A DNA stretch of 64,000 nt from Balanoglossus misakiensis (taxonomy: Eukaryota > Animalia > Hemichordata), in the NCBI GenBank assembly GCA_040954595.2, contig CM082584.2:4468110-4532109 (forward strand). The letters run 5' to 3'. The position numbers and the translations under genes were made by a program. Positions 7,036 through 58,059 of the stretch are shown one piece after another. The notes beneath the pieces are model-generated. The model saw nothing but the letters and a program-made list of their open reading frames with translations, was not told the origin of the DNA and made no database searches. Every line of letters begins with the position of its first letter. Position 1 is the first letter of the stretch.

Positions 7036-7369
7036 TTTTCCAGTCCGCTGTATTTCAGCGTTGAGGGCGCACCAGCGTTTATAGTGGATGTGGATTTCGA
7101 GTTCAACTTGGAGAAGTGGTTTTGTGCACGGACTCGCTCGCCAGCAACATTTGGTGCGGGTCGACCAATCACAATCCACTTCGCAAACTTGATAGACATC
7201 GGTTAAGTGCGGTGACTCCTACACACCACACACAATTTAGTGTTCTCGACAATATGGACGCTACTGTTATTTTGACGGACAAAATTCTAATCTCTGACTT
7301 CTGCCAGAGTATTCATCATCACGTCACAGGAATGATCACATGGAACAGAGAAATCGTGTTGTTTTTCGT

Positions 7370-7776: not shown

Positions 7777-8194
7777 AGCCCCACGAACTGCAACTCGGGA
7801 CATGATTTTAAAATTAAATGATATGGCCTGATAGTATGTCAAGATAATACTTATTGATGACAAAATGGCCACAATAGTTAAATAAATATCAGTACAGTCT
7901 AAAAATTTCCACAATTTAATAAAAACGAAAATGTAATGTCTCAGTGGAGTACCTCCATGTGTTCTAGTGGGAAATGCAAACTTTTCGTTGTATTTTGCAT
8001 TTTGCCACGGTGGCGGCCATATTCCTTTGCGGCAAAGCTTTATTATTTATCTGATTAAAACTTGCATATGCACTCATACTCAGGGTTGATAATACTTGTA
8101 TATACTCCAGTGCATACATCTTTATGAGCTAATGGTAGTACAGTTTGAAAATATATGTCATGGTAGTTTCCCCAAAGTTGCAGCTCACGGGGCT
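7777..8194. mobile_element. MITE related to family 1, TTAA target
   Basis: TTAA|AGCCCCACGAACTGCAAC ... GTTGCAGCTCACGGGGCT|TTAA. The interior is the reverse complement of parts of 136-605. Confidence 0.75.
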
Positions 8195-12600: not shown

Positions 12601-15600
12601 GAACCTGAATATAATCAATTATTACTAGCTATTCTCATTTCTGAAATATAATAATGACATCTCAACCACCTTCCTTTAAACACGATGAAGTTGGGCCTAC
12701 GATTATCCAGATGTGGACATAGCTTTTCATAAATTGGGTTTATGTACAAGGGTGATTAAATGTCCTAACTGCTGTCTCCGAACTCTGGAAATCGTCAGAG
12801 CTTCACGATTGCTTTCGTTTCCACGGGACATACTTATTTCCTGCATATGCGTTCTGCACAGCTGGGGAATGAACAAACCAGTATTCTACATTCCAAAAAC
12901 TCCTTGATTTTATGACAATAATTACAGTAAATGCTTTTGTTTCTTGTTTAAAGTGACGACAATGGCAAAATGGCCGGATTCTTGATCGATCTGGTCAATG
13001 AAGGTAAATAATATGGTTCAGAATTATATCGAGACTTTACACTATTAGGCACGATGGATGGATGGATGGATGGATGGATGCGGGTGTGTGCGTGTGTAGG
13101 TCATCTCTGTGCCTGAATATACTTCCTTTGTCAGTAAACCGTGTCGTTTAGTTCTTTATATTGTTTCCTTTCAAATTTTGGTGGAGTAATATATTAATGG
13201 AGCGGGTTGGTCAGTGCTATGAATGGCTAAGGCAAAATACAGGGAGTATGGAGCTGGAAGGGAGATAGGAAGACATTTTCGACTGAAGAAGTTTGTAGCA
13301 TACTTTATAAGAGTAAATCACATTAGTTTCGTTTGGACAGAGCCAAATGTACCATTTCTTTCAGTATAAGTGTATCGTAATTTTGTTCTTTCATTTTTTT
13401 TTGTAAAGTTTGTAGCGAGGCCGGTAAACAATGTGAAATTATGTATGACTCCTCCAGCAACTGTTATACCCATCATGCTGGTGAACATTCTAAAATTGGA
13501 CCAGGTGAGTGTACGGCCAGGTAATTACTAGCATATACTGGTTGCCTATGCAAACTACTGTCTACGGCATTCTGGGACCGCTGGAAAGTCCAAAATTTAT
13601 TTGCATAAATATTTGAATGGATTCACACAAAAATGTATGGATCACTTTGTTGGGAGAATGTCCTCCCATTCTCGCTGGGTCTCGTGGATTTCGAAAAATA
13701 ATCTATTGCTTTGATGAGCATACCAAATAATTTCAGCTGACATTTGTTAGCAGCCTAGCCTGGAATTCGAACTGCCTGGTTGGTAATTTCGCCTAAAATA
13801 TACCCTATGTCTTTAGTGATTGACTATTAATATTATGTTACCACAGGTCTGCTGGGAAAAAGTTACGACGCCTGTTTGGGTTGGATGCAAACTGATGAAC
13901 GTGAACACTCCGTTAAGTTCACAAGCGCATTCTGGAATGACGGAAACGAGGCCTACTTCTACGTGAAGGCTGATAACCCAAAGGGATTTGACCCAGAGAA
14001 TATCGAAGGAAAAGTCATCGGTAAGACTAAAGGATTAATGCCAAGTGGCATAAGTTTTAGACAGAAGATAGAATCGTCACGTGCTGGTTTTCGATTTCAT
14101 CTTGAGAAGGCCAGTGCACATATCTCAGAGCCGAATTGTTCACTCTTGACTGCGATTGGTTAATTTCATGTCTGTCAAAATCTTAACGCCGGTGTAATGG
14201 CGCAGAGATGATTTTGCGAACAACGTGGTTCAAAATGAAATCTATTCCAGCTGGACAGCACCATCCACGGCAAATGTAATTCACGAGCATTGACATTTCA
14301 GCTCGACATGCTTAACTTTATGCTATGTTTTCAGAATGTTTGTTTTGTGTGTCTACTGCAGTTTCTTGTTCTAATCCCTGAAAGATGATCAAATGCCCAG
14401 TATCCAGCTTATTAAAGGGACAAAGTCTCTCTCTCTCTGCCCTTATTTCCATTAATTATGTTTGATACAAGACACTGTTTATGTTAATGTACATGTGGAT
14501 ATATAGTGAATCAATGATCAACCACACAAAACTTCCATCCCACTTGTATGATATGAGAGAAAAAACTCGCCCAAAATGAATAAATGGTAAAGAACGATTC
14601 ATTTTGGCGAATTTTTTTCACTCTACTGTCTATAAGAGGGATGGAAGTTGTGTGTGGTTGAACGTTCATTCGCTATATATCCACATGTAGAATAACAAAC
14701 GGTGTCTTGTATCAAATGTAATTAATGGAAAAAAGGGCAGCGAGAGAGAGACTTTGTCCCTTTAATACAACGTATGCGTATATAGTCAGCATTGTTATTG
14801 AGCAAAATTTGTATTCCAGTCCGGACTAGATTCATTTGTCAACAATAACAATGGCTGTTACACATACGCATACAGGCTATGTTGACAAGCGGAGTACTGC
14901 GTATATAAGCATGCTGTTTTGCAGTAGAACAAGAAGTTGCATTTGGTACACAGAATTCCCACACAAAAAACTACAACCAAAAGTGGATGTCGCTATGGGT
15001 TCCATACGGCACAGTTGCTATCATGCAATCTTTTCTAAATTGCAGGATTCGTTGATGGATGGGTGAGCGATAAGAGTTGTCTCCAGAAACATTATGGTCA
15101 TGGTCATGTCGACCAGACAGTCAAACCAGCTTCAGAATACATCGGCGATAGGGACCAATTGTTTGCCTCGTTGGAAGACGAAACGGTAAGCAGCAATAAA
15201 CACAACACACAAAATCAACTGTCAGCTATAAAAATTTAATTTGATTCTTTTGAATATACGGCGAAATCCTCCCAGGTCGGTTACTCATATTGACGATAAA
15301 GAATCATTCAAAATATTAATCTTAATATGCATACTAGGCCTATACACGCAAGTTCAAGAAATACAAATTTTTCTCGTATCTGCTATAACATTGAGAGTAA
15401 ATTTGGGGGTAACCAAATCTGATAAAAATCAGCTGGAAATGACTGTATATGCGGCATCTTTACCATTGCTTGGTCTCTGCAGGTCCTTCTATGTCATAGA
15501 ACGCGAACGCGAACAGCAGAAATCAAGCAATGGTAAATACGCGCCTAACCCTTCAGCCGAGTTAAATCAGATTAGGGGTCACCCTGCAAAATTTTGCTTT

Positions 15601-18737: not shown

Positions 18738-21108
18738 TCATATTATCAATGGCCTTCTCTCTTCACTGGTCTGTGACGTGCTCAGAACGTTCTCCTCTGG
18801 CTCACTTCCATCTCCACTATCAGACTTTTCCGGGGTGGGCTCCTCCGTTTTTTCCATCTGCTCTGCCAGGTATTTCTCTTCACAATTTCCGGCATCTGCT
18901 TCTCGAGTGTCCCACCGCTGGCGACAACTGGCCATCCAGCCAGCTCTTGTCAATGTGAAGACTGCTTTGCTCATGAACATACATCCTATGATGAAGAAAT
19001 AGCCACTGTATATCAGGAACTGAAAAACAAAAAGAGATCAATTCAAAGAGTTAAAGGCACATAAGATGCAACTTTTGGGATAATTATCATAATTTTTGTT
19101 TCAAACTGTACTACCATTAGTCTATGCAGATGAAGGCAGAGAACTAAACACAAGCATTATAAACCCTAACTTTTAATAATAGTGCAATTTAGGTTCCAAC
19201 AGTGCCACTACAAGTATAACATCGTTATTTTGTAACTTGTGAACCAAGTACAGATCGACAAACAGTAAAACATTAAAGCTAGTGTATCCTAAGAAATGTC
19301 AAATTTTAACCTGTGTGTTTGCCGGCAGATGTAAGCCGTGCTGATCTACCACAATCACTGTCACAATACTCTGCAGTGCCAAGGCCAGGAAGGTGTTGCA
19401 ACCGAACACCAATGCATAGCGTTCTGTGGTGAGGTGAGATGCTATCTGGAAACTAGAATGATACCAGTTGTGAAACAGTGTGAACTACAGAATGCAATGC
19501 CAAAAATGATGAGGACATAACATCAATCAATTATGCAAATATACTGCTTTATTTAATTGATACCTACCTGGCTATGGTGATTAGAAACTGATAAGATGCC
19601 CTGAAGAGTACGTAGAATCCATATGCAATCCAGATGTACGATGTGAGAGCCATGGTCAGAAGAACACCAGCATCCAGTAACGATACTATACCGAGTGTCA
19701 ACTCACCAAATATTGTCCAATTGAATCTGATAAAAGCCAGGATGAAGGCAGCAAAAGCACCTTGATGGGAAAGGAAGGAGAAAATGTTAACCAAAATATA
19801 TCTGTATGAACAATATAATCTTTAGCACTTTTTGATATCAAGGCAGTCCTGTTTCTCTTTGGCCAATCCCAAGTTATGGCCTAAGCCTCCTCCCTCCTCT
19901 ATTGGCCATGCTCCTTATACACTATGCATTATCCCTCTCGCCAAGACAAACCAAAGACTGTATGATGGAAGTAGTTTGCCCTTACCTGAGAGAGTAGCCA
20001 CAGCCTCCACAGCCCCATTGTAAATAGCAACACTGTCATCATCCGACGGCAGAATCAAGTCCCACAAATTCTGGACGTAATTGCCAACAAGAAAGTTGCC
20101 ACACGTCGCAAAAGCCCACCACAGTGACCACTTCAGCAGATGTGAGGAAGAGTAACACGTTTTGAAGTCCGTCCACAGGAACGAGAAATTCTCCTTGCAG
20201 TCTGTGCAGCATGTGGACCAATGAATGTCCAATGTTTTCTGTTTTTCTTCAGACAGGAGGTCGGTCACTTTGCTGTCTTCAGTGGCATGCCTGTCTGTTC
20301 TCATAGCTCTACTGTTATTACTTGTCTCGGCCACACCCCAGAATTCATCATCTTCATTTTGAACTCGATTTGAATCGTCTTCCACATTCTGATCATCAAC
20401 CCGGTGAACGTCAACTTGAATATTAGACCCTGCTGAAGGACTTGCATCTAACTGAGTCACATTTGTTATTTTATTTCTTTGCTTTTCTAAACTTTCCTCA
20501 TCGCTACTATCCACACATGGTTCAGGATCAGCATCTTTGTTCTTATGGAAGTAAACACTCTCTTTGGCACTTGGTAGAAAAACGCTGACAACAAATGCTA
20601 CTAACACGCTCGACAGGGAAACAATGTTGAGTTGGTAGTAAGTTGCCACTTTGAGAGACACCAGGATCTGCCCGAGAACTCCAGCAATGAAATCACCGGT
20701 CAAAATGGCTGCCCTGGTGTAACTCGTTACTCTGCGATACTGATCTGGGTGGACTACAGCATAGATGTACGAGTAGTAGGCGATTTCTGTTGCTGTTGCC
20801 GCGCCGTAAACGAACTGCATCAGTTGCATGGCTTGGACACCGGAACCAAACAGAAGCAGCAGCCATGTCCCGATGTATGCAACTGCTTCGAGAATGATGA
20901 CTGGCTTATACCTGAGGAAGTCTGTCAGCAGAAAGACAAACACCAATGCTGCTAGATAGGAATACGTCCAAATAGGGTAGATCTCGTTTGTAACTTCCTC
21001 TGCGGTCAGGTTTTTATCTGTGCGTAAATATGGCGTAAGGAAAGGCTCGGATGGCCGCATCTCCTTGAAAAATCCATACAGGCACAGTAGAACTGTAGCA
21101 AGCACCAT
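18738..21108 (-). CDS. SLC19 family thiamine transporter / reduced folate carrier (SLC19A2/A3-like), ~579 aa
   Basis: Exons 19986-21108, 19568-19760, 19311-19452, 18738-19019 (1740 nt, phases consistent). Family motifs [84 protein letters not shown]. Confidence 0.95.
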
Positions 21109-21781
21109 GTTTGTTTACAAACAGATTGGACATTTATGGACTTTATTGCAAATAGTGTTACGTGTTAAAATTTGAAACTATATCTTCAGATCATGTCCCC
21201 GCTTCGGGTTTTGTGAACACGAAATGTGAACGGTGGAAACTAGCAGTCCACATGAAAACTTGTTCCGTCAACGCCCACGTCTGCATGCAGCAGTGTTTGC
21301 TGGAGCGTAGATTCGGGTCGTGACAACTTGCAAAGACCAATCTAATAACTCTTGTGTACTTTCTGGACAGTGTTTTCAACGGACCGTCACATCTGTTGAT
21401 ATAACGCAAAACGCAAACGGCCATAACAAACTGAAATGACATTCACATACATTTGATAGCATTTCTCAAACAGTCTAAACAACACGATCTAACATCTGAA
21501 ACATCTAAAAACAATAGCAAAGAGTTCTTACTTCTTTGGCAAGACTCCACTGTAACTACAGAACAGTAAATCGGCGAACAAAACAGTAAACCAACAGGTT
21601 TCACAGGAACAGCCTCCGTACAGTGTTCACGACGTGTAAACAGAAATCGGTAAAACAGAGTTCGTATGGGGTCATGGGTCATATTTAATTGCTCATTTCC
21701 GGTATGTGAGGGCGGGCTTCCAATAGCTATAAACTGTCCACCCATCATGCATGGTGAACATAGCAATGAATTATGTATGGA

Positions 21782-23614: not shown

Positions 23615-26600
23615 ATGTTTCAAAGAAAACTGTTCGCAGTAATTTTCTTTTGTGTGCTCTCCTTGTTTGAATTTCCGAAATGTGACGGCCTCTTTCAGCA
23701 GCACCGTAAGTATTTAGACCGAGAAAATATCTTGTCTCTTTTTACATTTTTCAACGCGTCGGCGAATGTGTTACACTTTAAGTCGAACGCAATACTGTCA
23801 CGATTTCTCAATAATCGAATATTAGTATTACCAGCGCGTTTGAACGTGAACCTTCGTTTGTGGGTGGGCGATTTTTAATGAATGCAAAATTATGTTTATC
23901 ATTCTGCACTTTATGCCAACGTTACAGTTTGTGAAGATAAATGGGACCATTACAAAGGCAAGTGTTACTACGTGTTCCCAGGAGAATTTTACCCTTACCG
24001 AGAGGCGAGAACGGTTTGTTCTGGTCTTGGTGGAATGTTGGTTAAGATAAGCAACGATACAGAGCAACTGTATTTGAAAGGTAGGATATGATACAACATT
24101 TTCACTATAGAAATCTTGGGGATTATACTTGCGCGTTCATCAAAATCGCTTTGCCCACTCGTATACATATATGCCGATATACCTCACTACCCTCAAATTA
24201 CGCAATATTTTTGACAATGTCATGCGTGAGCAGTCGATGTTCCCACTGGGATCAGAGACACTATTTACCATTTGAAAACAGAGAGGATAAAACATTTGAT
24301 GAGTCGATCTGTGTCCCCGAACACAAAGTTGAAGCATGGACTTTGGCGCTCGGTCCCACAGAGAGCGTGTTGCTGTAACACAGGCTCAGGTCTGCCAGGT
24401 GGCCAGGAAAACACGCCTCAAATCTGAAACCTTTCGTAACATTTTATGCAAGTATTTGAGCTGGGACATTTCAGAAACAATTCAATGGTTCCTGTGTCCG
24501 ACTTTTCTATGTCGATTTCTATTTTTTCCAGGGTATATGCTGTTGAACAGAGATCTGTGGATTGGAGCAACCGACCTTGAACATGAAGGAAGATGGAAGT
24601 GGGAAGATGGAACTGCTGTAAGTCTTCACATTATTTGAACCAGCTGCATAATTGGGTCGAACATTTGCTCGTATCAAACATACATGTACCCATCATTAAG
24701 AGGTTTAACATACATGTAAATGTTACACAGTCAAGTACTTATTTTCACAGTACCGAAGTAATATATCAGCACTCAGAAGTCAGTCAAGTAATAGCCAAAG
24801 TCAACGGTTTTAGCAACTCAAACCAACGATTTATATCACATTGCATCAGAAACTACATACAGTCTGTCAGTCAGCGCGGTTTCGCGATGCTGATCGACAA
24901 TTGCGCGCCGATTATTGGCCTACACGGGTAGACTCACGCCATCTCTCCGAAATATGAACAAGCAAGCTGCATGCGCTGAAAATGACACAAGCAATGAATC
25001 ATATCCTGGACGAGGTTTTAGTGCAGCCTGGTGCTGGGTTCTCTCGATGCAGCCAGCGTGGTCTTGTCATATTTTCTGTTCACTGGTTTTGATGCGATAT
25101 CCGCCGTGAAAGCAATCGACTGTAAAGTACACGATATAAGAGCCCAAGCACAGGCATTTGGGAAATGTAGTTGATAAATACAAAAGCCATTCCTCCTGGT
25201 GTTGTATATATAGAATTTTTGAAAATTTCAATTGCTATCCGCATTGTGATTGTGACCCAAGGACTTTATGAATAGATAGATATCTCTATATGAAGCATAT
25301 TTATTGTGATTGGCAAATTGTTATAGGCCTATGATAAATATAACTGCTACTAATAATTTGTGTGTTTTGTTTAAATTGAATTTTTGAAATTTTACATAGA
25401 TGGCTTTACACTTTGCATTCTGTACAATAATATTCTGTACATGGGCAATCTCGGTTACCGCCTGCATGTCCTCCGGGACGCAGGATATGATTCTTCTTAA
25501 AGTTTTGGTTAATTTACTGGAGATGCTTTACATAATAGGGAGGGAGGGAGGGAGTCAGAAAACTTCCTTGGTGTGCAATGAACCCATGTATGCCGCATTT
25601 TGAAGAATTGTCACTTCGGGAAAAAAGTGGAGTATTTTACAATGTTGCGACCTAATCGATAACTGACAGTGGAATAGCGTTTAAATGCTAGTCATTATTG
25701 TTATAATTACAAACGCGTCTTTGTTTCCAACAGGTAACAAACTCTCACTGGTATCCTGGGCAACCCAATAATGACAACAAAAATGAACATTGTGCCTATT
25801 TGAACAAAGATAGAGATGCGGAATGGTGTGACAATCGGTGCTCAAATCGTAAGGGATTCGTTTGTGAAAAGGATACATGTAAGTACGTCTTTGATTTAGG
25901 GTTTTCTAAGTCATTCAATGCACGGGTCCAAGTTCACGGGCAGTCACTGCCTGTATAGTAGTCCACATACCGGAAACCTACCCAAAATATGTCTGAAACG
26001 CCAACTCTGACAAATTGGTGGTATGCCTGAATGAATGTCCAGGGAGGAATAATTACTACTCCGATTCCAAAACAGAAGACCAGCTTCATCAAAAAACCTT
26101 GACCGTGTACTTAACATGACCGAAGGCTCCGGCTAATTTTGATGATTAGTGACGGGCTTTGAACAATTACCCGTGTACAATTTCGGGAAGCCGTGAACAT
26201 TTTGAGTAAGGAAGAACGACCCATGCGAGACTCGAACCCACACTGCAAAAGACAATGTTCTCTTGTTTTCTGTGCAGTATGTAAAGTTACCGCCGTCGGT
26301 GTAGAAAGTGGCGCCATTCCTGACTCACAAATGACTGCCAGTAGCTATCACGATGCAAAACACGCACCTTACCAAGGAAGACTACATTTTCAAAAAACCG
26401 GAGTTTACCATGCTTGGTGTCCAAGACTTCACGAAGTCGGACAGTGGTTACAAATAGACCTCGGTCGTACCGAGAAGGTTGTCAAAGTGGCGACGCAGGT
26501 AAGGAATCTTCTCTATCGCCTCTAATTCTTTGCCCTTTTTTTTCGGAGCCCACGTCGAACATTTTTGTGATAGAGAACCAGGATTTATGTATAGCTGAAT

Positions 26601-29600
26601 ATGTACCTTGTTGTATTTGCCATAGGAGTATTTGCCACTTCTCCAAACCTCATATAATTTCGACAAAATATGCTAACGACCACAAATTCTATGATCATAT
26701 TTTACTCAGGGACGTGGTGATTACAATGCTTGGGTCAAATCCTACAAGTTACGATACATCGACGACTCTACTTGGAAATATGTGACTGATTCCATGGGCA
26801 ATGAAAAGGTATTATACATCACATAATTTTTCAACGACACGAAGTATTGACCCATTAATCACGCACTGGCACTATTGAAGTTGTACAGGCCGCATGTATA
26901 CCAACACGCAAATAATGGTGCAACTGACGGCTACAATCTTCCAGCAATGTTCAATTTTGAAATCGCGTCTATATACCTGTGTAGTAGTCCTTTTTAATAT
27001 TGGAAGACAATTTATAGGTAACGACAAAAAAATTAAAGCTGCAAGCAGCATTGTCGGGCCCGAGCGCTGATCTCGGATTATATATGCACATTATGAATGA
27101 GAAGAAACATAATGCTCTATCAGGTGTTTTATCTCATGAGGTAACAAGGACGTATGTATTTTTGGTGCTGATATAGAGAAAAGTAGGTCAAAGGTCACCT
27201 GAGGTCACTCAAAATTTGGGAAATTAATTTTGACCCCATACTGGTCCATGTCCAACAAAAACCAAAACTCTAGCTCTATTGGTTCGCCTGTAATTAGGTA
27301 TGTACATATTTAATAAGGTCAGCAGAGGTCACAGATAATCCAAAAATTTGGCTTTACACTTTGGTCCCATCCTGCCAAATGCTAAGGCTGTATCTGGTCT
27401 GGATGCAGAGATATGCGAAAGTAGGCCAAAGGTCACCTGAGGTCACCCAACATTTGGGCAAAAGATGTTGACCCCATACTGGTCCATGACCAACAAAAAG
27501 CAAAACTCTAGCTCTATTGGTGTGCCTGTAATTAGCTATGTACATAATTAATGAGGTCAGCAGAGGTCAAAGGGGTCATGAAAAGTAGCAAAATATTTTG
27601 ATCACACACTAATCCATATGCATCAAAAACCAAACGTCTAGCCCTATAGGTTAGCCTGGAATTAGATATGCAGAAATAATAACGTGTGAAAAGTAGGTCA
27701 AAGGTCATGTGAAAAATCGCCAAAAAATTTTAACATATTTTAGTCATATGACGATTGATATCCATAAAAAGAATTTGCATGCTATCAATTTTCAGACTAG
27801 AAAAAGGAATTTCAATTTTTCACTGCTTTTTACAAAATCCAATATGGCTGCCATAATCTTCGACCAATCACAATGCTCTTTGCAAACTTGATAAACATCA
27901 GTTTAGTGACCATACTCCCCAAATCTTGTGACTCAGTTATCCCCTGTTCTGGAGAAGAAGATTTTTGGAGTGTTACAATGGTTTTTCGAAAATCCACTAC
28001 AGCCGCCATAATCTTCGACCAATCACAATGATCTTCGCAAACTTGATAGACATCAGTTAGGTGACCACATACCTCAAACCCGTGTCTTAGTTATCACCGG
28101 TTCTGGAGAAGAAGATTTTTGAAATTTAAGCCAGATTTCAGAAGAAAAAAAATTGTAGCAACTTTGACAGCATAATTTCCAATTACAATTAAAGCTGCGA
28201 GCAGCATTGTCGGGCCCAAGCGCTGATCTTGAATTATATATGCACAGTATGAATGAGAAGAAACAGAATTTTCTATCGGATGTATTATCTCATGACATAA
28301 CAAGGATTTGTGTATTTTTGCTGCTGAAATAGGGTGAAGTAAGTCAAAGGTCACCTGAGGTCACCCAACATTTGGGCAATTTTTTTTACCCATACTGGTC
28401 CATGTCCAACAAAAACCAAAACTCTAGCTCTATTGGTTCGCCTGTAATTAGGTATGTGCATATTTAATGAGGTCAGCAGGTGTTACAGGTGACCCAAAAA
28501 TGTGGCTTTACATTTTGGTCCCATCCTACCAAATGCCATGGCTGTATCTGCTCTGGATGCTGAGATATGCGAAAGTAGGTCAAAGGTCACCAGAGGTCAC
28601 CCAACATTTGGGCAAAAAATGGTGATCCCATACTGGTCCATGTCCAACAAAAACCAAACCTCTAGCTCTATCGGTGCGCCTGTAATTAGCTATGCACATA
28701 ATTAATGAGGTCAGCAGAGGTCAAAAGGGTCATGAAAAGTAGCAAAATATTTTGATCACACACTAATCCACATTCATCAAAAACCAAACGTCTAGCCCTA
28801 TAGGTTAGCCTGGAATTAGATATGCAGAAATAATAACGCGTGATAGGTAGGTCAAAGGTCATGTGAAAAATCGCCAAAAAATTGTAACATATTTTAGTCA
28901 CATGACGATTGATATCCATAAAAAGAATTTGTATGCTATCAATTTTTAGACTAGATAAAGGATTTTCAATTTTTCGCTGCTTTTTACAAAATCCAATATG
29001 GCCGCCATAATCTTTGACCAATCACAATGCTCTTTGCAAACATGATAGACATCAGTGTAGTGACCATACTCCCCGAATCTTGCGACTCAGTCATCGCCCG
29101 TTCTGGAGAAGAAGATTTTTGGAGTTTAACTATGGTTTTTCGAAAATCCAATATGGCCGCCATAATCTTCGACCAATCACAATGATCTTCGCAAACTTGA
29201 TAGACATCAGTTAGGTGACCACATACCCTAAACCGCGTGTCTCGGTTATCATCGGTTCTGGAGAAGAAGATTTTTGAAATTTAAGCCAGATTTCAGAAAA
29301 AAAATTGTAGCAAAAAAACTGCAACATTGACAGCAAAATTTCCAATTACAAAAATGATGAGTAGAAGGTAGTCTACCTGCATGCCAAATTTGAAGTCGAT
29401 CTGACTTGTAGTTTCTGAGATCTGAGATTTGCATTTTTTCAGAAAATCTAATATGGCCGCCAAGTCACGTGACTAATTAAGTATTCACAAATCACTGCAC
29501 ATCTACTCATTGACCTTGACCACTGTAGCAAGTTTGAGCAGTGTACCTGCAGTAGTTTCTGAGATTTAGTTGGCCGAAGAATTGACAGGAGAATAAAGAA

Positions 29601-32600
29601 AGAAAGAAAGATTAAAGCTGCAAGCAGCATTGTCGGGCCCAAGCGCTGATCTTGAATTATATATGCACAGTGTGAATGAGAAGAAACAGAATTTTCTATC
29701 GGATGTATTATCTCATGACATAACAAGGATGTGTGTATTTTTGCTGCTGAAATAGGGTGAAGTAGGTCAAAGGTCACCTGAGGTCACCCAACATTTGGGT
29801 AATTTTTTTTTACCCATACTGGTCCATGTCCAACAAAAACCAAAACTCTAGCTCTATTGGTTCGCCTGTAATTAGCTATGCACATAATTAATGAGGTCAG
29901 CAGAGGTCAAAGGGGTCATGAAAAGTAGCAAAATATTTTGATCACACACTAATCCACATTCATCAAAAACCAAACGTCTAGCCCTACAGGTTAGCCTGGA
30001 ATTAGATATGCAGAAATAATAACGCGTGATAAGTAGGTCAAAGGTCATGTGAAAAATCGCCAAAAAATTGTAACACATTTTAGTCACATGACGATTGATA
30101 TCCATAAAAAGAATTTGTATGCTATCAATTTTTAGACTAGAAAAAGGAATTTCAATTTTTCAGTGCTTTTTACAAAATCCAATATGGCCGCCATAATCTT
30201 CGACCAATCACAATGCTCTTTGCAAACTTGATAGACATCAGTGTAGTGACCATACTCCTCGAATCTTGCGACTCAGTCATCGCCCGTTCTGGAGAAGAAG
30301 ATTTTTGCAGTTTAACTATGGTTTTTCGAAAATCCAATATGGCCGCCATAATCTTCGACCAATCACAATGATCTTCGCAAACTTGATAGACATCAGTTAG
30401 GTGACCACATACCCCAAACCCCGTGTCTCGGTTATCACCGGTTATGGAGAAGAAGATTTTTGAAATTTAAGCCAGATTTCAGAAAAAAAATTGTAGCAAA
30501 AAAACTGCAACATTGACAGCAAAATAGCCAATTACAAAAATGATGGGTAGAAGGTAGTCTACCTGCATGCCAAATTTGAAGTCGATCTGACTTGTAGTTT
30601 CTGAGATCTGAGATTTGCATTTTTTCAGAAAATCCAATATGGCCGCCAGGTCACGTGACTAATTAAGTATTCACAAGTCACTGCACATCTACTCATAGAC
30701 CTTGACCACTGTAGCAAGTTTGAGCAGTGTACCTGCAGTAGTTTCTGAGATTTAGTTGGCCGAAGAATTGACACAAGAAAAAAGAAAGAAAGAAAGAATT
30801 AAAGCTGCGAGCAGCATTGTCGGGCCCAAGCGCTGATCTTGAATTATATATGCACAGTATGAATGAGAAGAAACAGAATTTTCTATCAGATGTATTATCT
30901 CATGACATAACAAGGATGTGTGTATTTTTGCTGCTGAAATAGGGTGAAGTAGGTCAAAGGTCACCTGAGGTCACCCAACATTTGGGCAAAAATTTTTGAA
31001 CCCATACTGGTCTATGTCCAACAAAAACCAAAACTCTAGCTCTATTGGTTCGCGTGTAATTAGGTATGTGCATATTTAATGAGGTCAGCAGGTGTCACAG
31101 GTGACCCAAAAATGTGGCTTTACATTTTGGTCCCATCCTATCAAATGCCATGGCTGTATCTGCTCTGGATGCTGAGATATGCAAAAGTAGGTCAAAGGTC
31201 ACCAGAGGTCACCCAACATTTGGGCAAAAAATTTTGATCCCATACTTGTCCATGTCCAACAAAAACCAAACCTCTAGCTCTATTGGTTCACCTGTAATTA
31301 GCTATGCACATAATTAATGAGGTCAGCAGAGGTCAAAGGGGTCATGAAAAGTAGCAAAATATTTTGATCACACACTAATCCACAAGCATCAAAAACCAAA
31401 CGTCTAGCCCTATAGGTTAGCCTGGAATTAGATATGCAGAAATAATAACGCGTGATAAGTAGGTCAAAGGTCATGTGAAAAATCGCCAAAAAATTGTAAC
31501 ATATTTTAGTCACATGACGATTGATATCCATAAAAAGAATTTGTATGCTATCAATTTTTGGACTAGAAAACGGAATTTCAATTTTTCACTGCTTTTTACA
31601 AAATCCAATATGGCCACCATAATCTTCAACCAATCACAATGCTCTTTGCAAACTTGATAGACATCAGTGTAGTGACCATACTCCCCGAATCTTGCGACTC
31701 AGTCATCGCCCGTTCTGGAGAAGAAGATTTTTGGAGTTTAACTATGGTTTTTCGAAAATCCAATATGGCCGCCATAATCTTCGACCAATCACGATGATCT
31801 TCGCAAACTTGATAGACATCACTTAGGTGACCACATACCCCAAACCCCGTGTCTCGGTTATCACTGGTTCTGGAGAAGAAGATTTTTGAAATTTAAGCCA
31901 GATTTCAGAAAAAAAATTGTAGCAAAAAAACTGCAACATTGACAGCAAAATTTCCAATTACAAAAATGATGGGCAGAAGGTAGTCTACCTGCATGCCAAA
32001 TTTGAAGTCGATCTGACTTGTAGTTTCTGAGATCTGAGATTTGAATTTTTTCAGAAAATCCAATATGGCCGCCAGGTCACGTGACTAATTAAGTATTCAC
32101 AAGTCACTGCACATCTACTCATAGACCTTGACCACTGTAGCAAGTTTGAGCAGTGTACCTGCAGTAGTTTCTGAGATTTAGTTGGCCGAAGAATTGACAC
32201 AAGAATAAAGAAAGAAAGAAAGAAAGCAAGCAAGAAAGAAAAATTCCAACGAAACCAATAGGGCCCAAGCGCTTGCGTGCGCTTGGGCCCTAAAGAAAGA
32301 ATTAAAGCTGCAAGCAGCATTGTCCGGGCCCAAGCTCTATTATCTGATCAGATTATTAGATATGCACATCATTAATGAGTAGAACCATAATGCTGTGTTT
32401 TATCCCATGAAATATCAAGGTTATATCAATGTTTGGTGTTGATATAGTGTTAAGTAGGTCAAAGGTCACCCAGAGGTCACCCACAATTTGGGCAGAAAAT
32501 TTTGACCCATAGTGGTCCATGTCCAACAAAAACCAGACCTCTAGCCCTTTTGGTTAGCTCGGAATTAGGTATGCACATAAATAATGAGTTATGCAGGCGT

Positions 32601-35600
32601 CACAGGTGACCCAAAACTTTGGCTTTTCATTATGGCCCCATACCTTCAAACGTCAAGGCTGTATCTGTTGTGGATGTCGATATATGCAAAAGTAGGTCAA
32701 AGGTCACACGAGGTCACCCAACATTTGGGCAAAATATTTTGTCCCCATACTGGTCCATGTATAACAAAAACAAAACCTCTAGGTCTATTAGTTCATCATC
32801 AATTAGGTATGCGCATATTTAATGAGGTCACCAGAGGTCATGAAAAGTAGCAAAATTTTTTTATCACATACAAATCCACATACATCAAAAACCAAACTTA
32901 TAGCCCTATTGGTTAGCCTGGAATTAGATATGCAGAAAAATGATGCGTCAAAAGTAGGTCAAAGGTCATTGCCAAAATTACCAAAATATTTATAGCTTAT
33001 TCTTGTCATATGATGATTCATATCCATAAAAAGAATTTCTGTGCTATCAATTTTAAGGCTAGAAAAGGAATTTTTACTTTTTAATCGTTTTTCACAAAAT
33101 CCAATATGGCCGCCATAATCTTCAACCAATCACATTCCCCTTCGCAAACTTGATGGACATCTGTTTAATGACCACACACACCAAATCTTGTGACTCGGTT
33201 ATCGCCCGTTCTTGAGAAGAAGATTGTTGAAATTTTACAATGGTTTTTAGAAAATCCAATATGGCCGCCATAATCTTTGACCAATCACAATGATCTTCGC
33301 AAACTTGATAGACATCAGTTAGGTGACCACATACCCCAAACCGCGTGACTCGGTTATCACCGGTTCTGGAGAAGAAGATTTTTGAAATTTAAGCCAGATT
33401 TCAGAAAAAAAATTGTAGCAAAAAAAATGCAACATTTACAGCAAAATATCCAATTACAAAAATGATGGGTAGAAGGTAGACTACCTGCACGCCAAATTTG
33501 AAGTCGATCTGACTTGTAGTTTCTGAGATCTGAGATTTGCATTTTTTCAGAAAATCCAATATGGCCGCCAGGTCACGTGACTAATTAAAAATTCAAGGGT
33601 TCAATGCACGACTACTCATTGACCTTGACCACTGTAGCAAGTTTCAGAAGTGTACCTGCAGTGGTGTCTGAGATCTAGAGCGACAAAGAATTGACACAAG
33701 AATAAAGAAAGAAAGAAAGAAGAAAGAATTAAAGCTGCAAGCAGCATTGTCCGGGCCCAAGCTCTATTATCTGATCTGATTATTAGATATGCACATAATT
33801 AATGAGTTGAAACATAATGCTGTGTTTTATCCCCATGAAATATCAAGGTTATATGTATGTTTGTTGTTGATATAGTGTTAAGTAGGTCAAAGGTCACCCA
33901 GAGGTCACCCACAATTTGGGCAGAAAATTTTGACCAACAGTGGTCCATGTCCAACAAAAACCAGACCTCTAGCCCTTTTGGTTAGCCCGGAATTAGGTAT
34001 GCACATAAATAATGCGTAAAGCAGGTGTCACAGGTGACCCAAAACTTTGGCTTTTCATTATGGTCCCATACCTCCAAATGTCAAGGCTGTACCTGCTTTG
34101 GATGCCGATATATGCAAAAGTAGGTCAAAGGTCATCTGAGGTCATCCAAAATTTGGGCAGAAAATTTTGACCCATAGTGGTCCATGTCAAACAAAAACCG
34201 GACATCTAGCCCTTTTGGTTAGCCCGGAATTAGGTATGCACATAAATAATGAGTAAAGCAGGTGTCACAGGTGACTCAAAACTTTGGCTTTTCATTATGG
34301 CCCCATACCTCCAAACGCCAAGGCTGTATCTGGTGTGGATGTCGAGATATGCAAAAGTAGGTCAAAGGTCACCCGAGGTCACCCAACATTTGGGCAAAAT
34401 ATTTTGACCCCATACTGGTCCATGTATAACAAAAACAAAACCTCTAGGTCTATTGGTTCATCATTAATTAGGTATGCGCATATTTAATGAGGTCACCAGA
34501 GGTCAAAGGGGTCATGAAAAGTAGCAAAATTTTTTGATCACATACAAATCCACATACATCAAAAACCAAACTTATAGCCCCATTGGTTAGCCAGGAATTA
34601 GATATGCAGAAAAAATGATTCGTCAAAAGTAGGTCAAAGGTCATTGCCAAAATTACCAAAATATTTATAGCTTATTCTTGTCATATGATGATTCATATCC
34701 ATAAAAAGAATTTCTGTGCTATCAATGTTTAGGCTAGAAAAGGAATTTTTACTTTTTAATCGTTTTTCACAAAATCCAATATGGCCGCCATAATCTTCGA
34801 CCAATCACATTCCCCTTCGCAAACTTGATAGACATCTGTTTAATGACCACACACACCAAATCTTGTGACTCGGTTATCGCCCGTTCTGGAGAAGAAGATT
34901 TATGAAGTTTTACTATGGTTTTTCGAAAATCCAATATGGCCGCCATAATCTTCGACCAATCACAATGATCTTCGCAAACTTGATAGACATCAGTTAGGTG
35001 ACCACATACCCCAAACGGCGTGACTCGGTTATCGCCGGTTCTGGAGAAGAAGATTTTTGAAATTTTGACCAGATTTCAGAAAAACAACTGTAGCAAAAAA
35101 ACTGCAACATTGACAGCAAAATATCCAATTACAAAAATGATGGGCAGAGGGTATACTACCAGCACACCAAATCTGAAGTCGATCTGACTTGTAGTTTCTG
35201 AGATCTGAGATTTGCATTTTTTCAGAAAATCCAATATGGCCGCCATGTCACGTGACTAATTAAGTATTCACAAGTCACTGCACATCTACTCATTGACGTT
35301 GACCACTGTAGCAAGTTTGAGAACTGTACCTGCAGCAGTGTCTGAGATCTAGAGCGCGAAAGAAATGAACCAAGAATAAAGAAAGAAAGAAAGAAAAACC
35401 CCAACGAAACCAATACGGGCCCAAGCCTGGCTTGGCTTGGGCCCGTAAAAACCCCAACGAAACCAATAGGGCCCAAGCGCTGGCTTGCGCTTGGGCCCTA
35501 AAAACCCCAACGAAACCAATAGGGCCCAAGCGCAAGCAAGCGCTTGGGCCCTAAAAAATTCCAACGAAACCAATAGGGCCCAAGCGCTTGCTTGCGCTTG

Positions 35601-36365
35601 GGCCCTAAAAATGATGGGCAGAAGGTAGACTACCTGCATGCCAAATTTGAAGTCGATCTGACTTGTAGTTTCTGATATCTGAGATTTGCATTTTTTCAGA
35701 AAATCCAATATGGCCGCCAGGTCATGTGACTAATTAAAAATTCAAGGGTTCAATGCACGACTACTCATTGACCTTGACCACTGTAGCAAGTTTGAGAAGT
35801 GTACCTGCAGCTGTGTCTGAGATCTAGATCGACAAAAAATAAAGTAAGACAGAAAAACTCCAACGAAACCAATATGGCCCAAGCGCACACAAGCACAAAT
35901 CGTTGTTTCCTCGACGCATTTTCAAAAACAAAACAACCATTTAATATACTACTTTTCTATCTGGTATAGTGTCATGACTACTGAGAGAATATGAGCAATT
36001 GCCAACAGGCCTACTAGCCCCCCCCCCCCCCCATATATTAAAGTATATTGTTCACCCATGAAGCAGATATCTGTTCACAATAGAGTGTGATGTTAACACG
36101 ATGATGTGTCAAATTTACAACAATTCCAGTTTCGGCTGAAAGGAAATATCCAAAAAGTATTTATTTCCTGAACATTTTGAAGCCATTTACTCATAAATCA
36201 AAATCTTATTCTTCATTGCAGTTGTTTTCCGGGAACTACGACAGGAACACAATTGTCTACCACGATTTATTGAGCAGCGCCTTCATCGCTCAATACGTTA
36301 GATTTTACATGATGACGTGGCACACTTATATATGCATGCGAGCTGAAGTCTACGCATGTGAATAG
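23615..36365 (+). CDS. Secreted C-type lectin + F5/8 type C (discoidin) domain protein, ~312 aa
   Basis: Exons 23615-23705 (signal peptide), 23928-24080 (CEDKWDHYKGKCYY..EARTVC), 24532-24617 (LWIGATDLEHEGRWKWEDG), 25734-25878 (WYPGQPNN..EHCA..WCDNRC..FVCEK), 26278-26498 (GVESGAIPDSQMTASS..AWCP..QWLQIDLG..VATQ), 26710-26808 (GRGDYNAWVKSYKL), 36222-36365 (FSGNYDRNTIV..YVRFY..CMRAEVYAC*). 939 nt, phases consistent. Confidence 0.92.
26100..26245 (-). mobile_element. Possible tRNA-derived SINE fragment
   Basis: Minus strand reads GTGTGGGTTCGAGTCTCGCATGGGTCG (Pol III B-box-like). The A-box was not clearly seen. Confidence 0.35.
27032..35886 (+). mobile_element. Cluster of six nested non-autonomous Helentron/HINE (DINE-1-like) elements, ~1.2-1.7 kb each, in intron 6 of the lectin gene
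   Basis: Identical heads ATTAAAGCTGC(A/G)AGCAGCATTGTC(C)GGGCCC(A/G)AGC at 27032, 28188, 29611, 30798, 32301 and 33728. Internal ~240-bp and ~155-bp sub-repeats, a (GAAA)n tract, and terminal 14-bp-stem hairpins at 32259, 35414, 35467, 35520 and 35574. Insertions fall in A-runs with no TSD and there is no coding capacity. The superfamily label is inferred from architecture. Confidence 0.8.
35394..35607. repeat. Four stacked 53-54 nt terminal-hairpin units
   Basis: AAAAA(CC/TT)CCAACGAAACCAA followed by TAGGGCCCAAGCGC-N6-GCGCTTGGGCCCTA (first copy TACGGGCCCAAGCC-N6-GGCTTGGGCCCGTA). Loops: TGGCTT, TGGCTT, AAGCAA, TTGCTT. Confidence 0.95.
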
Positions 36366-36488
36366 TGTACAATCGATATAGAATGTGGCGGCTTGTTACC
36401 GTTTGGTGATTGCGAAAATTCTGTTGTTAAAAACAATTTCAGTTAATAGCAATAAAATATGATCTTGCATCAAAAATTTTAGTCAACC

Positions 36489-37898: not shown

Positions 37899-38324
37899 TT
37901 ATTCACTGTATAGGCCATATACAACGGCGACGCCGAACAACGAATCATTCTTGTAGGCTCCTTCAGCCGATGTATCATATTTATCGTTCCATATACACTG
38001 ACTGACACAAGCTAATGCTCCATTGTCCATCGATCCAATGTAGACATAGCACACAATCTTGTAACGTTGGACGTTCAGCTCTTTCACTCTGTCTTTGATC
38101 ATGTCTGCAAGCTGCTTCGTCAGACCGAGACATTTTGTCGGCTCGTACTTTTCGTTCTCCAGCATGGCTTGAAGTACGTCATTGATGATTTTCTTGACAC
38201 CAGGCTGGGGAAACCGGTTGTCCGGTTCCATCTTGTAAGTGTTGTCATATCGGAGCGGGGGTCTTGCCACAGCTTGGCTTCTCTGTGTCGAAGCTGAAAA
38301 CTTGGAGCCAGCAACTGCCGCCAT
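37899..38324 (-). CDS. Dynein light chain Tctex-type (TCTEX1D1/DYNLT5-like), single coding exon, 141 aa
   Basis: YDNTYKMEP..F....VKKII..L...Y....C....K.LAD.IK.RVK.LNV.RYKIVC.V.IG......SQCIWND..D..A...YKNDSLF.VAVVYGLYSE* is the Tctex-1 pattern. ATG in AAAC-ATG-G context at 38324. Confidence 0.93.
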   Translation of the reverse strand: MAAVAGSKFSASTQRSQAVARPPLRYDNTYKMEPDNRFPQPGVKKIINDVLQAMLENEKYEPTKCLGLTKQLADMIKDRVKELNVQRYKIVCYVYIGSMDNGALACVSQCIWNDKYDTSAEGAYKNDSLFGVAVVYGLYSE

Positions 38325-39299
38325 GTTTGTCTTGTCGATGACTACGCTTATACTACGCTTATACCTGTTCTTGATGGGGACTTGAGCAAAAAATCGATAA
38401 TGGGTTTGCAATACAAGATTTACTCCATGTCCAATGACTACACAAGACTCCAACAATTGTTGTTTTGAAACGCGGTGGTCATTTGTATAATCCTTTCTCC
38501 TCTGACATCAATGCAAAACAAAAGAGCAGGTATCGACGTTTGCCTTTGCCGACTGACTAAAAGCTCACCAACGGCTTATCTGGCCTTACTGTTTGGTCCA
38601 TGTCGTGCTTTGTTGCCAATGATGATAAACACAGTGGCAGTTTTGACATTTTGAGGCTCATTTGCACATTATAATGCTGTCACTTTAAAAATGTGTTGCT
38701 TGTATTAAAGCGATAACTTTCTCAAGTTTTTTTCTGCATTCAACCAACACGCACGCACCTCATGCACACGTGTGCTCACACATGCGCACGCACACACAAT
38801 ATCTAATCAACTAAAATACAACGTCAAATATTGACTAAAATATGCAAGAAATAATATATAACACTCTTATTACTGTTCTCACAGTCCCTCAAGAAAGAGA
38901 TGTTCTGTAGTATAAAAAAAAGGTCGTCAGGGTTAATCCAATTTCACCACAAAAAACGAAACTCTCTTTGTCCCAATCTCGAATTACAGAACGCAAGTTG
39001 TTGAATTTTTCCTGCCCGGGTTCTTCACCCGTTCGGACACACAGAGGTTGAAACATTTGGCAAAAAGAACCATAATGTTTACAAAAAGGGCTATTCTAAA
39101 CAAAAGTCCCGCCCATTGTCAAATTGAAAAGTCCACTTTTTCGCTCGGCCACCCAATAAAAACCTGAGATTGGCTAAATTTGCATAGTTAATACCTTTTA
39201 ACACACAAAATTGTGTTTTATGACACAGGACTTGGAATGGTTCCTGCTGGTTGCCTTGACATTCAACTTGATTTGCATCCTAAAATTTGGATTTATTTA

Positions 39300-48300: not shown

Positions 48301-50997
48301 TTTGCGAACCAAGGTTGTACGGTTGAAGTTCCGGATCTTTGGGAAGGTGTGAACACCTTACATGTACAACCAAGGTATGCACATTACATATCACGGTTAT
48401 AAGGATTTTTATCATACACATTATGCTTGCCATAAATATCAGTAAAATGATGATTTTTGATATTTTTCACGAGAATTAAGCAGGACACAGTCAATCCATT
48501 GCCCCGTAGAGTTACACAGGCATGCAAATCAAGGTATAAGTACATGTACATGCTCTAGCATTCAGATGCCAACCAAAAGCTAAAGTGACCAACCACCTTT
48601 TACAATGCCAACCAGTGACTTGCAAAGAAATCTTCTTAGCAGTGCAAGCAGTTTACCGGACAGACACCGACCCACACATACATGTACACACATACACAGA
48701 CCGACAACGCATAAACAATCATATTAACATCAAAAAGAGAATGTATGATGAGAGATGTTGTATGTGAGTGAGTCTGTTTGTGAGAGCCAAACACATCTCC
48801 ACTTACCAAACGCCTTCCGTGGTTCAATTAAAGTCATCGTAAATCTCGCCCCCTGGGGCAATTCCTTCAGAGTTCTTGCAACTTCAAAATGTCGACATCC
48901 CACCATACTTTTCCCGTTGATAGCTTCCACGTGATCGCCAACACTCACATCACTCTGGCGATCCATTATACTGTTTTCTTTAATTCGTTTAATAAATGCA
49001 AAGCCCGCACCATTATCAGTGATTGTAAGTCCCAGAGCCGGTTCACTTTTGAGAACTTCAACTTCTTTCGAATAACCTTTTATATGCGCAAAGATGAAGT
49101 CTTCCAATCCTATCTGTCCCCCTAGAAGTCGTTGCATGTCGATTCGATGTGTGTTTAGTGTGCAAAATATAATCTGCCAAAAAAGAGAAACAGAAAAAAA
49201 AGATGACTGTGTTAAAAAGTTATTGCAAAATTTCTGGTGAGATATTCTCAGTAGAAAGTCGTTGCAAAGGTTGTGTAGTGTGTGTGGAAATTTCTAAAAA
49301 TCATATCACTAATGATATTGGGTGATCAACTGCTGAAAAAGAATCATTGTTTATAATCACTATAATCAAGCTATAATCAGGCAAGTGATATACAATCCTA
49401 TTTTCTTTAATAAGAAAAATATCTGGGAAATCACGCTAATTATCGAAACCAACAATGCGGGAACTGAATGACACAAAGGAAAATTCCAGAAAATGCATCG
49501 TGTTTTGTTATTTTTTTATTTGCGCAAGAAAAGCTAACAAATCTGAAGCTGTATGGAAACACAAATTTTAAATTATATGAATTTTTTTCTGTGAGATGTT
49601 TCATAAGGGAACTTCAACACAAATTTTACATTATATAATTGTTTTCCCCTGTAAGATGTTTTAATGTACATCTTTATCAAATTCTAGTCAAGACAACAGA
49701 AACCGTTGTTGGCTTTATGCGTATGTATGTTGACTGATTGACCAGTAGTAATTTCAAAATGCACTTGGAGGTGTTATCGGAATGTCCTTATTGATTGCGA
49801 GACAAATTTCAACAGCTAAGGTTTATTCCTGACAAAAACAGGAACACAGGCTCATTTCTTATCAGTAATACATCAGATAATTAAATTTGTATTCATATTT
49901 TAAAAAATTGTATGGGGCAATGATTAACTGGGTAGAGTATGGACAAATAACAGCAGCATTCAGTACCCAAAACCACAAATCCATTTTCACTGAAATTATA
50001 ATGTGTGTGGACATCAACGTTTCAAATAATAGAGCCAGCTGGTTTGCCAGTAGAGATTCTTGACACTGTCCACAAATGAACATGCAGACTCAGTCGTCAA
50101 ACACAATATACCGATAAACATGATAATATCTAGCAAGGTACCTATGACACCTCCACTGAAAATAGAATAACCCCTCTTGGCATCTTATTAGAATAAAGTC
50201 TTATGAAACAGATGGTGGCCACATGATGTAAACAAACTCAGACATATGATACTGAGCACGTCAGCATCTGAAATCACCAGAAAATCTTTGTGGGCTTGCA
50301 TGACAGGTAATGAGAAAGGTGTCAAGTGTCACTCATATGTATAATTGTGAAAATATCACAAAGCACACGTATGCACTCTGATATCAGCACTGCTGATCAA
50401 CTTCCGTCTGTCAGTGTGTCAGTAGCCGGTCGAATTGGGGAGAAAAAAAATTAAATAGTTACAAGCTGGGCAAAAATATCACGGGGAACACAATTAAACC
50501 CCCCCCCCCCCAAAAAAAAAAAGAAGAAGAAAGAAATCAAGGTGATACCCGCAACGGTTTTCAAGTTGGAGAGACATACATACATACGGACGCAACTGAT
50601 TCCATACGGTCACCGTGGTATATATATATACCAAACAGGACCTTAAATTCAGTGTTGGAATATTTAGAGTAAATAGGGTACTCTGTTGTATATCTTTATG
50701 CACGCTTCTGGCATATCTGTAATGACCTTAGTATTTGTCTGCAGCTATATAACAAAGAAATGCCAATTATGCTGCATGTATACAGGTAAGCAGACTCATG
50801 AACTTCACAACAAGATTTTTCCTTCACAAAAAAAAGGGCTTTGGCTTAGGAAGGGTCAATCAAAACATGGCTAGACAGAAGAAAGAATGGCTTCTGGAGA
50901 TGCAAGTCCACCCAGACCATCTGCTACTGAGTATTGTACTGTATCACCATTAGCATGAGGATGATGATGATGATGGTGATGGTGATGGTGGTGATGG

Positions 50998-51028
<31 letters not shown>

Positions 51029-57595: not shown

Positions 57596-58059
57596 AAGAT
57601 CAAAACACAAAGAAACTACACTATAAAATACATGTTGATGTTGATATTTTGTATATTTCAATGATAGAGAATTTTTGCAATATGGCACATGTATCTGCAA
57701 CACTGACCATGTAAGATGCTCAAACCAATGTTTTACATAATTTTAAAGTCTTTATTGAGTCAAATTGAACACAAGAAAAATTGTAGAAAAAGTTTCTTTA
57801 TTTTGTAAATATAGTTTGTTTGCTTTATGGAATAAAACATTCACTATTTATGGCATTGTCGTCTGTTGCATGGTGTACTTATTAATCAATCAACTTTAGA
57901 GTTCTTTTCCTGCTGGTTGATATGACATTTGAAAGGGTCAATACTTTCGTAGTATTTTTATGTCATTTTGTTCCAAGTTTAACAAAGCGAACAGGGTCTA
58001 TCTGGTATGTGAGACTCTGTGATCAAGTGAGATAGGGTGTATGATTTTGTATGTATTAA

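Follow-up and report, generated by a model that had tools for sequence, protein, structure and literature searches.

A Five-Level Nest of HINE-Type Elements in an Intron of the Hemichordate Balanoglossus misakiensis

Introduction

Non-autonomous Helentron-type elements (HINE, DINE-1) carry a 5′ subterminal inverted repeat (subTIR) of 11–15 bp with a nearby inverted repeat, a microsatellite, central tandem repeats and, towards the 3′ end, a second subTIR and a small palindrome, as outlined in the sections consulted of PMC4067079 and PMC7492417. They are moved by the Helentron RepHel, and their preference for T-runs has been attributed, by hypothesis, to its endonuclease; the target choice of HLE2/Helentron elements is biochemically untested (PMC4067079). 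HLE2 elements use a T|T target without target duplication, and the ends of HLE1 elements have been defined (PMC11417382). The element considered here belongs to this circle. Six copies of it lie at 27033–35893 of a 64,000-nucleotide stretch of Balanoglossus misakiensis (assembly GCA_040954595.2, contig CM082584.2, positions 4,468,110 to 4,532,109, forward strand), where they are nested one inside another in an intron. The whole stretch is called the window below, and all coordinates refer to it.

Self-insertion of Helitron-type elements is already known or has been proposed, and multiple 5′ termini have so far been explained by a self-insertion model alone. FoHeli of Fusarium oxysporum (Helitron2) has repeated 5′ termini of 31–85 nt, for which self-insertion was proposed, and three tandem copies in Metarhizium may represent two insertions into a 5′ end (Chellapan et al. 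2016, PMC5148889). In Xenopus, HelenXT233 (HLE2) has two left termini that differ in sequence, stand in direct repeat and each mark a subfamily (HELIANO, PMC11417382). Maize Helitrons are reported to insert near or inside other Helitrons and to owe multiple termini to nesting (PMC3288121); PMC12628747 reviews oyster loci in which parts of Helitrons lie within one another. In the double-insertion model of McGurk & Barbash (2018, PMC5932611), site preference likewise gives rise to tandem-looking clusters of transposable elements.

The present locus resembles FoHeli in its short tandem 5′ termini (53–54 nt here) and in the occurrence of joined ends. FoHeli shows multiple 5′ ends on one 3′ end, the nested intermediate being mostly a model in the part of PMC5148889 drawn on, whereas here six bodies and six 3′ ends are kept, the counts balance and each step can be restored to the base. 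The Xenopus and maize cases are end products or HLE1 elements, and the parts consulted of PMC11417382 and PMC3288121 contain no deep nest whose internal target site is fixed. The McGurk & Barbash model needs target duplications and yields head-to-tail dimers (PMC5932611, in the part consulted), while here duplication is absent and the target lies inside the previous copy. A last-in-first-out nest with stacked 5′ ends is not described for HINE or Cg_HINE in the corresponding sections of PMC4067079 and PMC7492417. A literature search, with Repbase and subscription journals outside it, found no report of this element family, of a balanced base-exact HINE nest or of a rate comparison. The locus keeps a self-insertion intermediate five levels deep, each step of which is readable to the base, and this fixes the ends of the element, the cut position and the order of events.

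Structure of the Nest

The units are numbered U1 to U6 in order of their heads on the plus strand, and their parts are as follows.

27033–28188, minus strand: left piece of U1, the outermost copy (3′ end in HINE orientation), in an A-rich site
28189–29611, minus strand: body of U2, A-type, in an internal A5 run of U1
29612–30798, minus strand: body of U3, A-type, with one 237-bp repeat fewer, in the A5 run of U2 at A1|A4
30799–32293, minus strand: U4, a complete 1,495-bp A-type copy, inside the (GAAA)n tract of U3; stem 32259–32292
32294–32301, minus strand: remainder of the U3 (GAAA)n tract, 8 bp, between U4 and U5
32302–33728, minus strand: body of U5, B-type, mosaic, in the A5 run of U3 at A2|A3
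33729–35448, minus strand: U6, a complete 1,720-bp B-type copy with an extra 237-bp repeat, innermost, in the A5 run of U5; variant stem 35414–35447
35395–35608, minus strand: stack of four 5′ termini of 53–54 bp (U6, U5, U3, U2)
35449–35501, minus strand: displaced 5′ terminus of U5, stem 35467–35500
35502–35554, minus strand: displaced 5′ terminus of U3, stem 35520–35553, loop reversed relative to that of U2
35555–35608, minus strand: displaced 5′ terminus of U2, stem 35574–35607
35609–35893, minus strand: right piece of U1, in which the microsatellite is eroded and the terminal hairpin broken (end approximate); the other haplotype appears to keep the hairpin

The element was defined on the plus strand as TTAAAG...CCCTAA. 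Six heads (27033, 28189, 29612, 30799, 32302 and 33729) and five complete hairpin tails (stems at 32259, 35414, 35467, 35520 and 35574) were found, together with one broken tail at 35860; a search of both strands gave no further head or tail core in the rest of the window. When heads are pushed and tails popped, so that the last in is the first out, the tail ends 32293, 35448, 35501, 35554 and 35608 pair with U4, U6, U5, U3 and U2, respectively, and U1 is left open. The resulting parse, U1[U2[U3[U4,U5[U6]]]], comprises six elements, five insertions and five levels, with all units in one orientation.

Excision of each inserted unit restores an intact target to the base in five cases out of five, and no target duplication accompanies any of them. 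The restored target is an A5 run in four excisions and the GAAA register in one (U4). The A-runs across the paired junctions sum to the five A of an intact copy (2+3 for U6, U5 and U2; 1+4 for U3). The stacked termini are spaced by 53, 53 and 54 nt, the extra A standing at the third stack junction, as predicted by the site of U3, which is shifted by 1 nt. The left piece of U1 aligns to positions 1–1166 of the complete copy U4 and the right piece (from 35607) to 1165–1475. A direct tail-to-head junction is absent from the window; such junctions without spacer in public contigs agree with the ends defined here. It is very probable that the nesting as such is real and exact.

The first-pass annotation of this DNA had listed the same heads, numbered one lower by counting the preceding A, and the same five hairpins with the loop sequences found here; it had given the same brackets and had treated U1 as split by an insert of ~7.4 kb without target duplication. 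The contiguous alignment of both U1 pieces to U4 and the five excisions bear this out. Its 'six nested insertions' hold as a count of nested copies; the insertions number five.

Ends and Class of the Element

On the minus strand the element opens with a 14-bp hairpin, followed by a 20-bp spacer and a T5 run. A (CTTT)n microsatellite comes next, ~55 nt from the 5′ end, and after it the internal repeats of 155 and 237 bp; the hairpin arm recurs near the far end, together with a small palindrome. This is the anatomy of a HINE, i.e., of a non-autonomous HLE2 (Helentron-type) element, and the minus-strand layout makes the plus-strand 'tails' 5′ termini. All five complete tails fold into a perfect 14-bp stem with a 6-nt loop from base 2 of the minus-strand element (z from −4.9 to −6.4); the tail of U1 itself (35853–35910) has no such fold (z −0.84). 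The 3′ subTIR, a 10–13-bp match to the hairpin arm 23–24 nt from the head, is found at six heads of six, with one mismatch in U1. The 3′ palindrome (5 bp/2 nt, 5 nt from the end) gives a 4-bp stem in the fold, the 52-nt ends folding with no more stability than shuffled sequences (z +1.0, +1.4). The central region contains the 155-bp repeat twice and the 237-bp repeat, between which no significant similarity was detected. A single stop-to-stop frame of at least 120 amino acids overlaps the nest, spanning the hairpin stack, and there is no coding frame of note. A search of the element against Rfam gave no match.

Kinship with HINE/DINE-1 had been proposed at the outset and is sustained by the subTIRs, the microsatellite, the central repeats and T|T insertion without duplication. 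In these characters, in the short 4-nt unit of its microsatellite and in the lack of coding capacity the element is like the HINE/DINE-1 elements of Thomas, Vadnagara & Pritham (2014, PMC4067079, in the part consulted). Two kinds of central repeats occur in the oyster Cg_HINE_10_13 and _11_12 as well (Vojvoda Zeljko et al. 2020, PMC7492417, likewise in part). The 155-bp repeat (28981–29284 and equivalents) shares, by eye and unaligned, a short motif with the oyster Cg_HINE CL1 monomers of that paper, and a possible deep kinship of the central repeats could be considered. By eye, the termini have no match among the 11 Cg_HINE subTIRs of Table S2 (PMC7492417), and the microsatellite is (CTTT)n, not of the GTCY type. 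The element is a new HINE-type family member, preserved as an unusually clean nest. An isolated 49-bp stretch outside the nest, 7161–7209, matches the 155-bp repeat at 86%.

Several other classes were considered and rejected. The ends, TTAG.. and ..TTAA on the element strand, and the T|T target differ from those of a canonical Helitron (HLE1; 5′ TC, 3′ CTRR, A|T target). A cut-and-paste miniature inverted-repeat transposable element (MITE) does not agree with inverted repeats that are asymmetric and subterminal, nor with the lack of target duplication in 5/5 insertions. A classical satellite is inconsistent with four of six units without an adjacent terminus, with termini stacked in reverse order and with the missing tail-head junction. 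Homologous integration of a circle at the locus is likewise rejected by reasoning, since it would give a direct tail-head junction, of which the window has none.

Insertion Sites

U3, U5 and U6 entered the A5 run that separates the (GAAA)n tract from the terminal module, and U4 entered 8 nt upstream, in the tract. The site of U2 is a different A5 run, about 290 bp away from the tract-side one. In all five cases the target is A|A on the plus strand (T|T on the element strand), cut mostly after the third T of the T-run. Four insertions of five fall within the 44-bp zone of tract plus A5 run, which holds 20 of the 321 AA/TT sites of the unit (p about 7 × 10⁻⁵), and three of five fall in one of its 22 A5/T5 runs (p about 9 × 10⁻⁴); for both values the zone was chosen after the data had been seen. 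Outside the nest, A5/T5 runs have a density of 5.8 per kb in the window. The single orientation of the units is explained by the pad offering T-runs on the element's own strand alone.

The first-pass annotation had placed heads 3–6 inside (GAAA)n and had taken this tract for a landing pad carried by the element. An element-borne pad agrees with four insertions out of five. It consists chiefly of the A5 run at the end of the tract, which holds heads 3, 5 and 6; the repeat proper was hit once, by head 4.

Divergence of Units and Termini

U2, U3 and U4 are 96.7–96.8% identical, U5 and U6 94.3%, and identity between the two groups is 85–87%; U1 is about 91% identical to the U2–U4 group. U5 is a mosaic, U1-like near its 3′ (plus-strand) end, where it sides with U1 at eight of nine informative sites in one 150-bp bin. 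Since the units differ by 3–15% and fall into different subfamilies, they do not form one concatemer, and since the stacked tails differ from each other at 3–16 of 50 positions, the stack is not a fresh duplication.

The proposal that the hairpin variant follows the body subfamily holds in part. The tail of U2 differs from that of U4 at 1/50 positions, as expected, and from its stack neighbour at 6. The tails of U5 and U6 have a common loop and differ at 12/50 positions, the U5 tail having an A-type stem; the U3 tail, with 6 differences from that of U4, departs from the rule through its CCCC box.

These data bear on the possibility of a tandem array of 5′-truncated units that arose through unequal crossing-over or rolling-circle read-through while the 53-bp terminus was duplicated separately, the five-to-five count being coincidental. 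The incomplete agreement of tail and body types could be cited for it, as could the direct tail-to-head joins common in the family (see below) and the plant Helitron arrays of truncated copies with unequal end numbers reviewed in PMC12628747. It is opposed by the A-runs, complementary in four cases of four with the GAAA register restored in the fifth, by the different subfamilies of the units, by the stacked tails, which are not mutual closest matches, and by the lack of a direct tail-to-head junction in the window. Such an array is highly improbable; the complementary A-runs and differing subfamilies speak for serial nesting rather than unequal crossing-over at this locus, as had been suggested originally.

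The U3 loop is the exact reverse complement of the U2 loop (35502–35608), and the remnant loop of U1 (35860–35893) is the reverse complement of the U4 loop with one CpG-type change, so that two tails of six have reversed loops. Ordinarily this feature would be read as a loop inverted by template switching; a bolder reading would be a resolution step like that of parvoviral hairpins. In the papers searched, neither loop reversal nor a hairpin-resolution step is mentioned for elements of this kind.

Representation in Public Contigs

Three runs (X1, X2 and X3; shares 0.61, 0.60 and 0.11) were available for one sample, as contigs only; they may share the source of the window itself and are not independent support. 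Two sub-stretches of the nest were compared with these contigs, none of which spans the nest. Contigs aligned on U4 number 8,388 in X1 and 4,062 in X2. In X2 the depth is 21–25 for each right-flank haplotype and 230,000–310,000 in the tail bins; this is read as thousands of copies of the family, summed contig depth being an overcount.

A misassembly of dispersed copies into one block could be supported by the lack of a spanning contig. Complementary A-runs and last-in-first-out order are not expected of an assembler, and public contigs contain one stack junction and the junction of U1 with its flank, each at the depth of a single-copy sequence. This explanation is barely credible. A 306-bp contig with 2 differences connects the right piece of U1 with the unique flank. 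In the second haplotype an apparently complete tail is joined to position 35894; the broken hairpin of U1 is likely a deletion on the haplotype of the window. The empty site of U1 was an A-run of about 10. Between 35894 and 36200 the second haplotype has several substitutions, a 4-bp deletion and 195 bp replaced by 60 bp. Copies that run uninterrupted through the split site of U1 are frequent, the upstream continuation being the loose end at 35607 in 25 X1 contigs.

Tail-to-tail joints account for a depth of 476 of 689,544 in X1 (0.07% of tail depth) and 373 of 230,515 in X2 (0.16%). These sums include nine of 12 table rows (four of six in X1, five of six in X2), the others, two 35811-to-35568 and one 35658-to-35722, being left out as internal rearrangements. 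At least six types of tail-to-tail junction are foreign to the locus, one with a GAAAG spacer. Hairpin stacks exist elsewhere in the genome and look rare. The U5|U3 tail junction has a depth of 37 in X2, where one haplotype gives about 21–25, and of 66 in X1; the U3|U2 tail junction is probably one of the listed rows. Direct tail-to-head joins make up 3.7% of depth in X1 (7 contigs) and 2.9% in X2 (2 contigs), i.e., they are 16–47 times commoner than tail-to-tail joints. Those without spacer (window 32292–32301) could represent circles, concatemers or re-insertion at the outer edge; contigs cannot distinguish circles from chromosomal tandems.

The rate of stacking was compared with a null in which every A5/T5 run is equally good and the diploid genome size is 1.8–2.4 Gb, the lower value being taken from PMC11175523. 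For 3,000–15,000 copies, 0.3–11 stacks are expected under this null, against about 16 haploid equivalents seen in X2. Judged from these sequence counts, the family as a whole shows little beyond T-run preference at the hairpin-side site.

The first-pass annotation had gone further, regarding the (GAAA)n pad as a family trait by which each copy seeds the next and satellite-like arrays are built. Four of the five insertions lie in the tract or at its end, and the foreign tail-to-tail junction types, including that with the GAAAG spacer, would fit. Coates and colleagues reportedly described in 2010, judging by the title, a lepidopteran Helitron-like family disrupting (GAAA)n microsatellites, an insertion preference that would be alike. 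Stacked tails at 0.07–0.16% of tail depth, about within an order of magnitude of the T-run null, the far commoner direct tail-to-head joins and the location of three of four hits in the A5 run, not in the repeat, speak against family-wide self-seeding, which is unlikely.

Another possibility is that the nest arrived ready-made. U2[U3[U4,U5[U6]]] could have been built stepwise by T|T insertions during mobilisation (e.g., circles into circles or into a donor opened at its 5′ hairpin) and could have entered U1 as one 7.4-kb composite. U2–U4 look similar in age, and one X2 contig has a junction of the U1|U2 type at a depth of 311 (haplotype 21–25), which could mean several copies. High-copy sequence at the end of a contig raises its mean depth, the composite is not amplified, since X2 has about 1.6 haploid equivalents of the U5|U3 tail junction, and with heads and tails in balance the nest has no double-headed chimera. 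The composite is considered rather unlikely.

Proposed Mechanism of Nest Growth

The reading preferred here, with moderate confidence, is nesting in place with a local bias from resident hairpins. U1 would have entered an A/T run in the intron and U2 an internal T5 run of U1. For U3, U5 and U6 the site would in each case have been the T5 run of the previous copy, about 54 nt from its 5′ end; U4 would have gone into the adjoining (CTTT)n tract. Each hairpin-side insertion would push the 53–54-bp 5′ terminus of the receiving copy onto the stack, and every incoming copy regenerates the pad, i.e., the T5 run by the hairpin. Mobilisation was likely performed by a Helentron/HLE2 rolling-circle RepHel/endonuclease supplied from elsewhere. 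Resident hairpins may recruit the transposase, so that the neighbouring T5 run is reused and each event adds a hairpin.

The locus was hit four times beside its own hairpins, and the surrounding 55 kb took no copy. At a per-copy rate of 0.1–2%, the chain U2<U3<(U4,U5)<U6 is expected 10⁻⁸ to 10⁻³ times per genome. The genome-wide rate is far too low for a four-step chain by independent events, from which local feedback is inferred; a self-reinforcing local hot spot is likely, rather than self-targeting by the whole family. Nesting that is rare genome-wide and deep at this locus gives a testable prediction on the statistics of nest depth.

Several points weigh against this interpretation. The feedback is derived from one locus, and the null rests on a genome of 0.9–1.2 Gb and on uniform use of T-runs. 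Junction rates come from one sample, summed depths are not copy numbers, records were filtered and (GAAA)n was skipped, so that the number of stacks may be too low. Detection is incomplete, as the contig junction list lacks the U6|U5 tail junction of the window itself. U3 combines the CCCC box of B-type tails and a reversed loop with an A-type body. Private differences of U2, U3 and U4 (21, 18 and 17 of 1,239 columns) do not resolve their age order. The terminal patterns have no relative in metagenome contigs (0), prokaryote genomes (0) or viral contigs (0), and no autonomous partner was found, the host genome being outside this search. The ready-made composite is the main rival to a build in place. 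Two loci that match a hairpin-only pattern share the hairpin alone with the element and are unrelated.

A wider reading is offered tentatively, and as a whole it is doubtful: HLE2 nests could grow by runaway feedback. The first hairpin-side insertion would be rare (about 0.1% of copies), and each insertion would add a transposase-binding hairpin beside a regenerated T5 run, turning the locus into a sink. The multiple 5′ termini of fungi and frogs, as well as much larger nests, would then all go back to such growth. Tail-to-head joins would arise from hairpin-side insertion at the outer edge, and a hairpin-resolution step would have left its mark in the reversed loops. What looks like a 1.4-kb satellite in an invertebrate assembly can be a nest.

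Host Intron and Other Features of the Window

The nest lies within an intron (26809–36221) of about 9.4 kb, which would be about 0.55 kb without it. Three flanking exons match consecutive parts of the F5/8 type C profile (Pfam).

26274–26498, plus strand: host exon, F5/8 type C (discoidin) positions 1–53, start approximate
26710–26808, plus strand: host exon, F5/8 type C positions about 60–86; donor of the nest-holding intron
36222–36365, plus strand: host exon, F5/8 type C positions 86–127; joined to the preceding exon in contigs of run X3

The third exon had been missed by a motif scan; it was found from a loose end in X3 and confirmed by Pfam. Two X3 contigs join the second exon to the third, one of them without a difference over 36220–36469; this points either to splicing across the nest or to a processed copy, the type of X3 (DNA) being a guess. 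The intron has expanded 17-fold, and its gene apparently continues to be spliced. The last F5/8 type C exon has 6–8-fold single-copy depth with diverged contigs, and the discoidin gene accordingly belongs to a multigene family.

Elsewhere in the window, an SLC19 thiamine-transporter exon (19915–21114, minus strand) has its best matches in Ptychodera (63% identity), Glandiceps (63%) and Saccoglossus (59%), from which an enteropneust host is likely. Frames at 37899–38507 and 48730–52909 (both minus strand) presumably encode a Tctex1 dynein light chain and a GIPC PDZ protein, respectively, and a Gly/Met/Pro-rich frame is located at 11659–12075 (plus strand). A small MITE-like element with long terminal inverted repeats occurs at 947–1169 and 14410–14767 (80–91% alike). 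A patchwork of other dispersed repeats close to the start of the window recurs in further parts of it (132–950, 7813–8198, 19051–19169, 55824–56048 and 58056–58477). A palindrome at 58910–59080 has 84-bp arms, 83% complementary, separated by a 3-bp spacer.

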